Source: Mustelus asterias (lineage: Eukaryota). From it: a DNA stretch of 64,000 nt. Below are positions 1 to 64,000 of this stretch, in pieces. How positions within the stretch are numbered: the first letter of the stretch is position 1; every line of letters starts with the position of its first letter. The position numbers and the translations under genes are program-made. The notes under the pieces are model-generated. The model ran no database searches, was not told where the DNA came from, and saw nothing but the letters and a program-made list of their open reading frames with translations. The stretch is from assembly GCF_964213995.1 (NCBI RefSeq), contig NC_135821.1, positions 4,836,001 through 4,900,000 on the forward strand, in the 5' to 3' direction.

Positions 1-23
1 TTGACAGGCTCACCCTCAACTGA
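1..23 (+). CDS. Ferritin H/M-like copy 0, 3' end of exon 4 (truncated by window edge)
   Basis: ttGACAGGCTCACCCTCAACTGA (..DRLTLN*) is identical to the exon-4 end of the other copies; AATAAA at 87-92; downstream spacer is homologous to the one after copy 1. Confidence 0.85.
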
Positions 24-1638
24 GTCATGAGAATGAAGTTTGATCCAGCTCTAACAGTCCTGTTCTGAGCTGTTGCTGTATTTGGAAATAAAAATATTTA
101 TTGTTGGACTGATTTTTCTTGTCCTTTACTGTAATTCAGTAGCTGGGTTCAAATATTTCTCTCTTGATTCACTCACCTCTTGTCTTGCAAAGGAAAATGC
201 AACGATCAGGGCGTGTGTAGTATTCATCTTCACTGCTGTTACCCAGAATACAAGACTTTAACCAGGTTTGCTTTGTTCACTCAGTTTGTCAATCTGGCTG
301 GATAGAAAGGCAAAAGTCAGGATTCAACAGCAAGATGTGCAGGTTGGAGGGGATTGGACATGGTAAATGTGTGGGGTTATGGGGCAATGCCTTGAGTGGC
401 ATTGGTGCATGCAAACAGTGGGCTGAATGGTCTCCTTCTACATTGAAGGATTCAATGGAGTCTGGGTTATACAGGGTGGCTCTGTCTGTGCTGACCTGTG
501 AAAGAATCAATGAATCCTGCATTGTTCCTCCAGAAACATTGCTGAAGCATTCTAGAATGTTCCACTTCAGTGTGTAGAGCAACTTTGGAGCAGGATGAAG
601 TCACTTCCAGCTGTGGCAGACTGCTGGCTTCCTTGGAAGCAGTCACTCCATCTCTCCTCAAAGCAGAAGGAAAATCCAGTTCTAGAGTCCTGCATTGATC
701 CTTTAAGAAACAATGTCTTTAAAAACACCACTTCTTCCAGTTCTGGAAGATAAATCATTTTGATTAATCTTCCTGACAGCCATTTGTACCCAGTCCGGCT
801 GATGTGATACCCGACCCACAGCGGTGTGGCTGACTCTTAACCACCCCCAGAAATGGCCCAGTGAGCCATGACCAACAAATACTGGCCTTGCAAGAAACAA
901 CCGCATCCCACCAAGCAGTACATTTTTAGAAAGAGTGGACACAAAGTTTTCTGATAAAGGGGGAAAAGCGCTGGTGTTTCCAGTTCTGAAATGTGGGGAT
1001 AAAACTCCACATCACACTTCACACTGACTGAGCAATAGCGTTCTGTCTGATACTCATCTCAAATCCATTTTACATTTCCCCCAACTTGTCAGTTGGTTTG
1101 TAGATTCCCTGGCTTTGTCTGGTGCTGGTCAGCTTCTTCCAATCTACCTCCAAGGGGAGGTGATGGCCGAGTGGTATTATCCCTAGATCATTAATCCAGA
1201 AACTCAGCTAATGTTCTGGGGACCTGGGTTTGAATCCCGCCACGCCCATGTCCCACGAATGAATGAAAAAAACATAATATTGTGGTCAATGCTGGGACTG
1301 TAAAGAAATTACTAAAAAGTAGTGGACTTAAAAAGTCTTTGGAACTCTCTTCCTAAAAAGGTGGTGGAAGCAGAATCGTTGAATATTCTTAAGGTAGTGC
1401 TGGGTAGATTCTTTGTAAGCGAGGGTGTGATAGGTTATCAGGGGTTGGCGGGAAGCAAAGTGAGGATGGGTACAAGACAAGTTGGTGTTCTTTGGATCAG
1501 CTGATCAAATGAGTGAAAGAAGAACTATTTTCTCATCTCAAACCCATTTTACATTCCCCCAACTTGTCAGTTGGTTTGTAGATTCCCTGTGGCTTTGTCT
1601 GCTGCTGGTCAGCCTCTTCCAATCTACCTCCAAGTCGA

Positions 1639-1985
1639 GGCAATGGCCTAGTGGTATTATCACCAGACTATTAATCCAGAAACTTAGCTAATGTTTTGGG
1701 GACCTGGGTTCGAATCCCACCACGGCAGATGGTGCAATTTGAATCCAATAAAAAATCTGGAATTAAGAATCTACTGATGACGATGAAACCATTGTCGGAA
1801 AAACCCATCTGGTTCACTAATGTCCTTTAGGGAAGGAAATCTGCCGTCCTTACCCGGTCTGGCCTACATGTGACTCCAGAGCCACAGCAATGTGGTTGAC
1901 TCTCAACTGCCCTCGGGCAACTAGGGATGGACAATAAATGCTGGCCAACCAGCGACACCCATGTCCCATCAATGAATGAAAAATA
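1639..1985 (+). mobile_element. tRNA-derived SINE (DeuSINE/SacSINE1-like)
   Basis: A box TGGCCTAGTGG, B box GGTTCGAATCCC, conserved core GGAAGGAAATCTGCCGTCCTTACCCGGTCTGGCC, A-rich tail; an internally deleted twin lies at ~1157-1270. Confidence 0.7.
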
Positions 1986-60136: not shown

Positions 60137-61640
60137 AAGTTACTGCAATTAATTTATTAACGGGGATCCAATTGAGCTCCACTTCCATTTGCAAACTCGA
60201 TGCCGATTATATTGTGAACTCTGACCCTGAGAGAACGCTATCAGATTCAGTGTGAGGAAAGACAAAGAAACCAATCACAATGACATCACTGGCAAAGCTC
60301 CACAGAATGGATTATTAGGAAAATTGGATGCAGCCTTTGGATATTGTTGGGATTGGGTTGGGTCTAGAAGACGGAGAATGGGCGCTCAGTCCAATTGGCA
60401 GGATGGGTCTGGTCATCTCCCCTGGGATTGGCACAGGGTCCTCCACATTTCTTGTCTTTATAAATGACATAGATAAGCGAATAGAGAGCCATATATTCAA
60501 ATCTGCTGATGGCACTGGGGTGGGTGGCACAGTAAAAAGCACCAATGGGAAAGAGAAGCTGCAGCAGACATTGATAAAGCAAGGGTGAAAAACAGTGTCA
60601 AAAAAAGTTCAAAGAGAGGAAGTGTGAGGTCATTGACTCTGAATCAAGAAAGATGAATCCGAATGTTTGCTAAATGTTGAGGAGCTCGGAACCCGTCTGA
60701 TTCACTAATGCCCTTTAGGGAAGGAAATCTGCCGTCCTTACCCGGTCTGACCTACATGTGACTCCAGAGCCACAGCAATGTGGTTGACTCTCAACTGCCC
60801 TCTGAAATGGCTGAGCGAGACACTCAGTTCAAGGGTAACTTGGGATGGGCAATAAATGCCGGCCCAGCCAGCGATGCCCATGTCCCACGAATGAATCAAA
60901 AAAATCTGTGGAGGAAGAGAGGGGTTTGGAGTCCATGTAGGAATAAGGAGAAGTGAGATTTACAATTCATCGACAGAAGCCACTAAAATATAATGAGCTG
61001 TCACCAGAATGATACCAGGGCTGAAGGGGTTAAATCATGAGGACAGTGTATGTAGTTAAAAAATAAAAAAATAAGAATTTATTATAATTGAGGATTGGAC
61101 AAAGTAGATAGAGAGAAACTATTTCCTTTGGAACAGTCGCTATAATCTTATTAAATCTTGGCCATTTAAGACTGACACTAAGAAGCATTTCTTCACAAAC
61201 TGGAAAGTGGAAATCTAGACAATCTCTCCCTAAAACATTGGGAACAACTAAACATTTCAAAGCTGAGCTTGTTGGGTTTTGTTAGGTAAGGGGATGAAGA
61301 CATATGGAACTAAAGTGGATGAATAAGATGCACATTCGCCATAATATAATTGAATGATGGAACAGGTTTGAGGGGCTGAATGGCCTCCTCCACTTCCTCT
61401 ATTCTCATCATAGAATAATCAACCAAACCTGCCTGCATTCTGATTGGTTCTGGGTATTGCACTCCACTCCCTCATTGGTGTTTGGACTGATGGCAGAGTC
61501 CTGATTGGCTATCAGAGATTGTCAATCATCATTGGTGATGTCATTCCCAGTTTGACTGCAGGATGTCCCAGTGGTATAAATACAAGAGCTTGTGAGGGTA
61601 GAGGTCAGCTTGTTGTTGTGTGACCCTTATCCTCAGTGAG

Positions 61641-63860
61641 ATGGCTTCCCAAGTGTGTCAGAACTACCATAAGGACTGTGAGGATGCTGTTAACAAGCAG
61701 ATCAACCTGGAGCTCTATTCCTCCTATGTTTACCTCTCCATGGTGAGGTTTTGTGATTATTGGGTTTAAATTTAAAATAATGGTCTGGTTGTGCTCTGAG
61801 CAGGTGCGATATCTTTGTCAATGAATTTGGCTTTGAATGATAGTTGTTGCTGATAAATGTTATTGAGGGACAAGATCTTGTTAACAGACTGCTCCCTGTC
61901 TGTAATAACTTGACCTGATTCTAAAGAGTTTCCATCTGAAACAGGCTCCATGAAGTTTCCAACAGAGGATTAGCTTTCATGCAACAAAGCCAATGTGCAG
62001 AGTGGACTGGGCCTCCAATCCCCTTGGTGGATTCACCTTTTATTGGGGAATAGAGGATTCATGAGGTGTATGAATCTGGTCAAATTATCCAACTTGGATG
62101 GAAGGAATTTAATTGGGTGACCACTTAGAATGGCAGAGGGAGGAGAACATTCATAAGTGGGTAAATCCTGTTCTGAAGTTTCCTTCCCCCAAGGTTAAAT
62201 CATTCCATGAGCAATGAATTGAAGTTTTTCTACTTTAAGCATTGATTTTTTTTTAAAAATCTCTATGGTGGGGGAGAAGGAATGTCCCACTGTTACATAG
62301 AATCATAGAAACCCTACAGTGCAGAAGGAGGCCATTCGGCCCATCGAGTCTGCACCGACCACAATCCCACAAATTTACCCACTAATCCCTCTAACCTACG
62401 CATCTCAGGACTCTAAGGGACAATTTTTAACCTGGCCAATCAACCTAACCCGCACATCTTTGGACTGTGGGAGGAAACCGGAGCACCTGGAGGAAACCCA
62501 CGCAGACACGAGGAGAATGTGCAAACTCCACACAGACAGTGACCCGAGCCGGGAATCAAACCTGGGACCCTGGAGCTGTGAAGCAGCAGTGCTAACCACT
62601 GTGCTACCGTGCCGCCCGTTAAACATGGCCTTGTGTTTGAAGCTAAACTTAAGCCCATTTGAGTAAGCAAATGATCTGTGGTTATTCTAAATTCCAAGTG
62701 TCCCATGGATGATCTGATCTGACTCTCTCCCTGCAGTTCCGTTACTTTGACCGGGATGATGTTGCCCTGAGTCACTTTGCTGAGTTCTTCAAGGAGCAGT
62801 CACATGAGGAATGGGAACACGCTGAGAAACTGATGGCATTCCAGAATAAACGTGGAGGCAGACTCATCCTGGAGGATGTCAAGGTTGGATTCTGTCATCT
62901 TGATGTCACCTTGTATTTTGTAAATTGTTGATTTTATTTTCCCACAGCATCATTTGGTTCTGACTGTCTGCCATGATTAAAACTGCCTCGTATTGACCTG
63001 AGAATGGGTGCATGAGTTGGTGTGGCTTTGATCTATGGATCAACCAGGGCTAGTGGCGAAAGGATCAATAAATGTGGAGGCTCAAAAGAAATGGGGGGGG
63101 GTTCTGTGCTGTAAACTGATGGCTCAAACAAGAACTGGTTAAACTATCAGCAAACAATGTAGCTCTCTATGGATCAAGTAATTTGCAAAATGGGTTTTGA
63201 TTCTTGATCCATCAGTCCATCAACAAAGTGATGGAAGGTAACATCCATGGCACTAACAAGATCTATTTTTGCCCCTCTTTCAGAAGCCAGAGCAGGATGA
63301 GTGGGGCAATGGTCTGGAGGCCATGCAGAGAGCTCTGCAGATGGAGAAGAATGTGAACCAGAGTCTGCTGGATCTGCACAAACTCTCCTCTGGGAACACC
63401 GACCCTCATGTAAGTTGATATTGGAATCTGCCCTTCGCAGTTGCAGTCTGAGCTTTTGGAGTTGCAGAGACCAGCCATGCCTTGGATCTGTCACTGGTTC
63501 ACAAGGCTTTTGGATTCTGAGATCTGTTTCTTGAGGCACTCGCTCCCAGTTTAATGGAATTGTGACTTGCTACTTGTGCACATAATCTAGAATTATCCAC
63601 ATGTCATACTTTCTCCATCCACCCAGTGCAAGATGAGGGTAACTTTCACCTAGGAAAGATCTTCCATGTTTGAGTTAATATTCACTAATTTCTCTCCTGT
63701 CTTTCCTTTCCAGCTGTGTGACTTCCTGGAGACTCACTACTTGGATGGACAAGTGAAGATGATCAAGAAGCTTGGAGATCACATCACCAACCTGAAGAGA
63801 CTGGGAGCCCCTGAGAATGGCATGGGAGAGTACCTGTTTGACAGGCTCACTCTGAACTGA
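61641..63860 (+). CDS. Ferritin heavy/middle chain-like copy 9, 173 aa
   Basis: Exons 61641-61742, 62737-62883, 63284-63409, 63714-63860; open frame with R63W, E71A, S94G and E140G; TATA 61575; AATAAA 63901. Confidence 0.92.
62297..62617 (-). mobile_element. V-SINE in intron 1 of copy 9
   Basis: Full-length; absent from the homologous intron of copies 7 and 8. Confidence 0.85.
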
Positions 63861-64000
63861 CTGGGTTTCTAATGGGAATATCAATTTTGTTGCATTTGAA
63901 AATAAAACATTGTCTCTGTAATTCTGTAGCTGATTTCATTATTTTCCACCCTAACCAGCACATCTTTTGGACTGTGGGAGGGAACCAGAACACCCAGAGG

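Follow-up and report, generated by a model that had tools for sequence, protein, structure and literature searches.

A tandem array of H-like ferritin genes in the shark Mustelus asterias with near-identical exons, divergent introns and no detected iron-responsive element

We analyzed a 64,000-nucleotide (nt) stretch of the genome of the shark Mustelus asterias (NCBI RefSeq assembly GCF_964213995.1, contig NC_135821.1, positions 4,836,001 to 4,900,000 of the forward strand), hereafter the window, which carries a tandem array of ferritin genes. Searches by blastn and tblastn, for which the first complete copy supplied the exon queries, found ten ferritin units in this 64-kb window, all on the + strand and 4.3-10.2 kb apart from ATG to ATG. 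Six are intact, one has a splice-donor lesion, one an in-frame deletion, one is dead and one is cut by the left edge; a preliminary description of the window had given the same tally, with which the exon searches and gene models agree exactly. Copies 1, 2, 4, 7, 8 and 9 have four exons of 102, 147, 126 and 147 nt, GT-AG introns and an open reading frame (ORF) of 173 amino acids (aa). The array extends beyond the left edge, where copy 0 is represented by its final 23 coding nt. The sequence TATAAATA, a TATA box, occurs at -65 to -75 in all nine copies with a visible start, and AATAAA lies 40-80 nt past the stop codon in all ten, the last one at 63901-63906, so that each complete locus has its own promoter and polyadenylation (polyA) signal, as described earlier. 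The units are as follows.

1..92, + strand: copy 0; last 23 coding nt (1-23), 3' untranslated region (UTR) and AATAAA, the remainder lying left of the window
3639..6703 (TATA to polyA signal), + strand: copy 1, intact; ATG to stop 3705-6622; exons 3705-3806, 5360-5506, 5919-6044, 6476-6622
9990..12749, + strand: copy 2, intact; ATG to stop 10056-12671; exons 10056-10157, 11530-11676, 12078-12203, 12525-12671
15270..19988, + strand: copy 3, pseudogene; ATG to stop 15336-19902; exon 2 18550-18696
23669..26288, + strand: copy 4, intact, with chimeric non-coding parts; ATG to stop 23735-26212; exons 23735-23836, 25401-25547, 25690-25815, 26066-26212
29554..30266, + strand: copy 5, exon 1 joined to exon 3; ATG to stop 29621-30190
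37600..39846, + strand: copy 6, donor lesion; ATG to stop 37665-39800; exons 37665-37766, 38487-38633, 39209-39334, 39654-39800
41878..43920, + strand: copy 7, intact, its 5' leader unique; ATG to stop 41953-43874; exons 41953-42054, 42740-42886, 43292-43417, 43728-43874
51382..53667, + strand: copy 8, intact; ATG to stop 51448-53621; exons 51448-51549, 52166-52312, 53047-53172, 53475-53621
61575..63906, + strand: copy 9, intact; ATG to stop 61641-63860; exons 61641-61742, 62737-62883, 63284-63409, 63714-63860

The class of the encoded protein was read from its residues. Exon 2 (49 aa), the only exon searched, matched 237 PDB sequences at E<=0.001 (best 2e-21), and the best 60 of these 237 were all ferritins, topped by vertebrate M and H chains. 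We located the ferroxidase, channel and nucleation positions by applying a fixed offset to the residue numbers of PMC13026281. In all seven copies with a full set of exons, the seven ferroxidase ligands (E, Y, E, E, H, E, Q) stand at conserved spacing and the three three-fold channel positions are kept, with Asp for Glu at the last site in copy 1. The first position of the nucleation triad is His in all seven and the other two are Glu, which differs from the acidic triad given for M-type ferritins (PMC13026281). As to the earlier label 'H/M type', the complete ferroxidase set agrees with both, and the His at the first nucleation position makes the genes H-like by that criterion. Ferritin L is marked by loss of the ferroxidase centre, which is complete here in every full-exon copy. 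By these residues the full-exon copies are H-like, none is L-type, and all are predicted to be ferroxidase-active. Their proteins are 93.6-97.7% identical and their coding sequences (CDSs) 96.7-99.2%, and the N-terminus, read by eye from the translations, has no hydrophobic leader. Arg-to-Trp changes at CGG codons were also observed, at codon 60 in copies 3 and 9 and at codon 40 in copy 4; the codon-60 change is common to two copies of different families (defined below) and could reflect CpG decay or conversion.

We also compared the residues of the cleft by which human FTH1 binds NCOA4, taken from PMC11076521 and PMC4592949, where R23 is reported to be essential for binding and bulk at A19 to block it. 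In all seven full-exon copies, the counterparts of human A19, R23, F82 and D90, mapped by a fixed offset and not by alignment, are D, K, I and E at codons 15, 19, 78 and 86, except that copy 8 has G at the last of these; N22, L27, K87, V111 and S114 are conserved. Such a cleft may weaken ferritinophagy. We regard this change as a lead only, given that Lys retains the aliphatic part of Arg and that shark NCOA4 may itself differ. Compared with canonical FTH1 (FTH1a) and amphibian or teleost ferritin M, the window genes share the ferroxidase and three-fold channel residues and have these proteins as their top PDB matches, and at 173 aa the protein is close in length to frog M (176). They differ in the His at the first nucleation position, the altered NCOA4 cleft, their multicopy state and the absence of a detected iron-responsive element (IRE).

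The IRE is a 5' UTR element for the iron control of H and L ferritin translation (PMC11719527). The 5' UTR IRE characteristic of canonical FTH1 and FTL was found at none of the leaders in the window, which we place at ~40-50 nt with the start site deduced from the TATA box. Rfam includes an IRE model. A search of the window with Rfam gave no match at the gathering score, and no IRE was among the 15 weaker matches up to E=5, which we read as chance or palindromes. A relaxed IRE pattern matched five times, against a mean of 3.0 (maximum 8) in 30 Markov controls, and never in a leader; since this count is at chance level, we rejected the matches as real IREs. The hexamer CAGTGA, the consensus of the IRE loop, stands 7-13 nt upstream of the ATG in seven of nine leaders (copies 1-4, 6, 8 and 9), with neither stem nor C bulge; it could be what is left of a former IRE, or could be there by chance.

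The promoters themselves are rich in CCAAT/ATTGG boxes, with three to five in each of the nine against 0.49 expected. NF-Y, the factor that binds CCAAT boxes, acts also as a general factor. It has been linked to oogenesis (PMC13274144), and the boxes weakly support the idea of an oocyte promoter. Our literature search found no direct precedent for an IRE-less oocyte ferritin in fish or for CCAAT oocyte promoters in zebrafish. The leader of copy 7 (41878-41952) is unrelated to the other eight, and the introns of this copy match those of copies 8 and 9.

Large ferritin clusters have previously been reported from sharks. The Greenland shark is described as having 155 FTL and 179 FTH1 copies, ~80% of them in three clusters that are syntenic with the great white shark and have an age of 250 million years or more, and the largest cluster shows ovary-specific expression (Sahm et al., bioRxiv 10.1101/2024.09.09.611499). 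According to Yang et al. (PNAS 2026, PMC13214024), a high number of FTH1b copies is general among sharks and exceeds that in rays and elephant fish; for the Greenland shark they counted 59 FTH1b genes, 55 in one cluster and 4 in another. Given this number, the FTL and FTH1 counts of Sahm et al. may overlap. The array in the window resembles the clusters of Yang et al. in its tandem four-exon ferritin-H paralogs from an elasmobranch, the intact copies being interspersed with truncated ones (five of 59 there; the spacing of 4.3-10.2 kb is that of our copies). It shares with those of Sahm et al. the tandem arrangement of ferritin genes; their clusters are ancient, syntenic, mostly full-length and ovary-expressed, and their copies are labelled FTL and FTH1, whereas here every full-exon copy has the complete ferroxidase set. 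As a tandem, multicopy, four-exon, H-like ferritin locus in an elasmobranch, the window is likely to be a slice of the ancient elasmobranch FTH1b cluster, an orthology suggested by host, gene type and arrangement. The preliminary description had proposed a lineage-specific expansion. We rejected that origin in view of the ancient, syntenic clusters of Sahm et al. and the many copies that Yang et al. found in sharks generally.

A further comparison is provided by the hadal snailfish, in which fthl27 is present in 14 copies versus three, is broadly expressed and lowers reactive oxygen species (ROS) in cells (PMC10746142). As in the shark array, an H-like ferritin of a fish has been amplified in tandem, and the amplification has been read as a dosage effect; the snailfish case differs in being teleost, recent, species-level and broadly expressed. 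The zebrafish genes fthl27, fthl28, fthl30 and fthl31 are comparable fish ferritin genes.

These reports also bear on the function of the array. Among the roles suggested earlier, oocyte storage is favored by the published ovary expression of the largest Greenland shark cluster. Alternatively, the same array could serve mainly as a reserve in somatic tissues, directed against oxidants or ferroptosis or used to withhold iron in immunity. Yang et al. tied the FTH1b expansion to ferroptosis and to polyunsaturated fatty acid (PUFA) content and detected transcripts of some FTH1b copies in fin and blood (PMC13214024), and the broad, ROS-lowering expression of snailfish fthl27 points the same way. 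However, the ovary-specific expression in Sahm et al. speaks against a somatic main role, and the NCOA4-cleft changes, if they weaken binding, would suit stable storage better than rapid ferritinophagy. We thus judge the somatic role unlikely, while still giving it some weight.

Next to the protein and the promoter, the third characteristic of the array is the contrast between its exons and everything around them. For 17 pairs of copies from different intron families, ungapped identity was 91-100% in every 15-nt exon bin, whereas from 15-30 nt inside the introns onward it was mostly 21-44%, apart from 49% following exon 1 and 62% preceding exon 4. In the 3' UTR it was 28-39% directly after the stop codon. 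Over the 21 pairs of seven copies, the mean proportion of synonymous differences (pS) was 0.034 and that of nonsynonymous differences (pN) 0.018, with a ratio of nonsynonymous to synonymous rates (dN/dS) mostly of 0.3-0.75 (about 0.5). The alignable intron parts differed by 0.11 on average, and between families just 2-32% of intron length could be aligned; the global identity of introns 1 and 2 between families was 0.63-0.67, against 0.55-0.61 for shuffled sequence, and within families introns differed by 5-18%. Copies 2 and 7, which are the extreme of the 21 pairs and were chosen post hoc, have no difference at 104 synonymous sites, while the identity of their intron 2 is 0.67, against 0.56 after shuffling.

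The coding differences also ignore the intron families. The mean number of CDS differences was 13.5 for the 4 pairs inside an intron family and 10.4 for the 17 pairs that cross families, and each copy stood 3-9 differences from the majority sequence. None of the eight informative CDS sites, which are few and may include recurrent mutations, defines an intron family, and of the 28 pairs that they form 14 are incompatible. The tree of the CDSs is a star with all four inner branches open, and the clade (1,2) was rejected by the approximately unbiased (AU) test (p-AU 0.024). Copies 2 and 8 are 99.5% identical over -110 to +102, yet their introns 1 are unrelated, and copy 8 combines a leader of the copy 1-4 type with introns of the copy 7-9 type. 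The non-coding segments group the copies differently from one segment to the next:

Leader: {1,2,3,4,8,9}, {5,6}, {7}
Intron 1: {1-4}, {6}, {7-9}
Start of intron 2: {1,2}, {3,7,8,9}, {4}, {6}
End of intron 3: {3-9} versus {1,2}
3' UTR: {0-3}, {4,5}, {6-9}

The three families of units recognized earlier therefore hold for the upstream flanks ({1-4}, {5,6}, {7-9}) and not for introns and UTRs, and because the non-coding segments are mosaic, we rejected a division into three clean unit families. The downstream comparison (130..1000) was too short to use for copy 9.

Three copies are damaged in different ways. Copy 3 has a TAG within exon 2, a deleted exon 3, chimeric introns and a fragment of a long interspersed nuclear element (LINE) in intron 1. 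In copy 5, exon 1 is fused in frame with exon 3 at a 6-nt microhomology, with an additional 9-nt deletion, leaving an 88-aa ORF that lacks five of the seven ferroxidase positions. Copy 6 has all exons intact, with AT instead of GT at the intron-1 donor, and read-through would meet a stop at codon 90. In these damaged copies exon 4 has 0-1 differences from the majority sequence. In copy 5 (29621-30190) there are none, and its promoter is retained; two GCAGAT hexamers meet at its deletion, as they would after microhomology-mediated repair.

Intact and damaged copies side by side bear out the earlier reading of tandem H-type ferritin genes with births and deaths. However, birth-and-death cannot alone explain a pS of 0.034 amid unalignable introns, and exon homogenisation must be added because synonymous sites are near-identical between copies whose introns cannot be aligned. 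Coding copies that are more alike than their non-coding context and carry incompatible sites are the pattern of a concerted family. What fits best is exon-limited gene conversion and unequal crossover acting at the DNA level on top of birth-and-death, as far as can be judged from the sequences of the copies. A similar situation is known for mammalian KRTAP1 (bioRxiv 10.1101/282418), where short-tract conversion of coding regions leaves diverging flanks with an abrupt border and dS is about twice dN. In contrast to KRTAP1, the pattern here recurs at every 102-147-nt exon of intron-containing genes, and conversion was shown across species there and is seen within one window here.

We considered three other explanations for the similarity of the exons. 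In pure birth-and-death, old copies would never exchange, and purifying selection, including that on codon use, would keep them alike together with slow elasmobranch mutation. The dead and damaged copies, the invariant ferroxidase residues and the uniform GC content at third codon positions (0.65-0.66) are as this explanation would have it. However, purifying selection on old copies predicts a high dS and a very low dN/dS, and the reverse was seen; moreover, the seven copies vary at only five of 54 fourfold sites although introns of different families approach the shuffled level, broken copies keep an exon 4 close to the majority, and the non-coding segments are mosaic. We therefore consider pure birth-and-death improbable.

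Homogenisation could also have come about through reverse-transcribed mRNA, if LINE reverse transcriptase (RT) acted on an abundant germ-line message. The sharp fall of identity at the splice sites agrees with such a complementary DNA (cDNA) route, as does the presence of young LINE copies in the array. It would, however, include the 3' UTR, which is part of the mRNA, and exclude the promoter, and the reverse was seen: the 3' UTR is not homogenised from the stop onward, and the tract that copies 2 and 8 have in common extends upstream across the untranscribed TATA region. There is also no precise intron loss in the seven full-exon copies, and conversion through cDNA appears very unlikely. Finally, an assembly artefact, either haplotypes set in tandem or exons collapsed by polishing, is scarcely credible, given the 3-9 differences of each copy from the majority, the copy-specific LINE insertions, the presence of such clusters in independent shark assemblies and the introns, which differ too much, between and within families, for the units to be haplotypes. 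Our estimates for these alternatives, including the somatic role, each bear on a separate part of the model and do not add up to one.

Taken together, the explanation that we hold to be fairly probable is an ancient FTH1b cluster that acts as an IRE-less dosage amplifier in oocytes and is concerted in its exons and subject to birth-and-death in its units. Many near-identical genes would supply large amounts of one ferroxidase-active cytosolic subunit. CCAAT (NF-Y-type) and TATA promoters with short IRE-less leaders would allow ferritin to be made at any iron level, most likely mainly in oocytes, where it could serve as an iron store for the yolk-fed embryo and as an antioxidant shielding the lipid-rich yolk from peroxidation. 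The units would be old, with selection holding exons similar enough to pair, so that short-tract conversion and unequal crossover could re-homogenise the coding sequence and shuffle intron and UTR types. Conversion would also maintain uniform subunits for the 24-mer, while deletions, splice lesions and LINE insertions would kill individual copies. It is this exchange between exons alongside the loss of single copies that would make the array concerted in the one respect and birth-and-death in the other.

Several observations weigh against this explanation. On the regulatory side, the finding of no IRE between genes anywhere in the window comes from a scan without a positive control, and a weak acceptor-like AG just before the ATG in six of nine copies makes an upstream exon possible. 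With transcripts in fin and blood, restriction to the ovary is not certain. As for homogenisation, besides the post hoc pair and the small number of informative sites, the clade (7,8,9) was not rejected in the CDS tree (p-AU 0.072), and the evidence comes from few sites in one window of one species, whereas concerted evolution is properly shown across species.

The remainder of the window contains mobile elements and other sequence:

16285..17865, + strand: LINE RT fragment in intron 1 of copy 3
21635..23579, no strand assigned: inverted duplication with arms 21635-22450 and 22765-23579 (95% identity, 816 nt)
32147..35346, + strand: LINE fragments between copies 5 and 6
45306..49030, no strand assigned: two LINE fragments in opposite orientations between copies 7 and 8
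55056..59237, - strand: LINE fragments (endonuclease and RT) between copies 8 and 9

The LINE fragments lie at different positions in different units. Those at 32663-33442 and 56819-57598 are 98.8% identical over 780 nt, and because of this identity their family must have moved recently. Among the 120 matches listed of 7278 found in 8000 candidates, the closest to the LINE RT protein were at 96-97%, including a Joint Genome Institute (JGI) protein at 97%; two proteins of the stingray Hypanus sabinus followed at 86-87% and a third at 57%, with the catshark Scyliorhinus torazame at 66%, the epaulette shark Hemiscyllium ocellatum at 63% and birds and turtles at 38-60%. Two matches with bacterial labels (70-73%) were read as host-contaminated records and not used. 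By these matches of the LINE RT, the element belongs to an elasmobranch genome. In a listing of sequencing runs that share sequence words with 37300-44100, at least 20 runs from 10 studies appeared; two of these 20 contain half of the words or more and may come from the source sample, none of those listed is an RNA data set, and the smaller shares were given no weight as evidence. The inverted duplication ends ~156 nt upstream of the copy 4 ATG, and the distal promoter of copy 4 is replaced. No non-ferritin flanking gene was identified among the eight of 18 listed long ORFs that were scanned, of which four are LINE RT or endonuclease and four have no Pfam match. A 171-aa stop-to-stop frame without Pfam match at 2522-3037, in a GC-rich upstream flank common to copies 1, 2 and 4, is probably a repeat remnant. 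Two palindromes (19206-19291 and 27061-27144), 91% alike over 92 nt and weakly matching microRNA models below the gathering score, probably represent a small mobile element with inverted repeats.

In itself the array is one more example of what has been published for shark genomes, and the added points bear on its interpretation. In the literature that we searched, which excludes most subscription journals, shark ferritin clusters were reported neither to lack an IRE, with short leaders and several CCAAT boxes per promoter, nor to be homogenised in their exons only, nor to differ in the NCOA4 cleft. The main text and term-searched supplements of Yang et al. contain no mention of IRE, UTR, gene conversion or concerted evolution (PMC13214024), and the preprint of that study does not mention ferritin. 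The array is thus already known, and these three features may be new.

If the exons are converted, dS is unable to date the duplications, protein trees make an old cluster look species-specific in copy-number comparisons, and coding RNA-seq reads cannot be assigned to copies. If the IRE is lacking and NCOA4 binding is poor, the product would be a stockpile outside normal iron control, which suits eggs better than the published hypothesis of ferritinophagy and longevity. More tentatively, and with considerable doubt, we suggest that these genes could form a separate, deregulated class of vertebrate ferritin, with IRE-free translation, a CCAAT/TATA oocyte promoter and possibly an evasion of degradation through the NCOA4 cleft, kept uniform for hundreds of millions of years by exon-confined conversion. 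If this is true, then the link between longevity and ferroptosis would be recast as maternal iron provisioning, and the array would be a clear vertebrate case of exon-by-exon concerted evolution.

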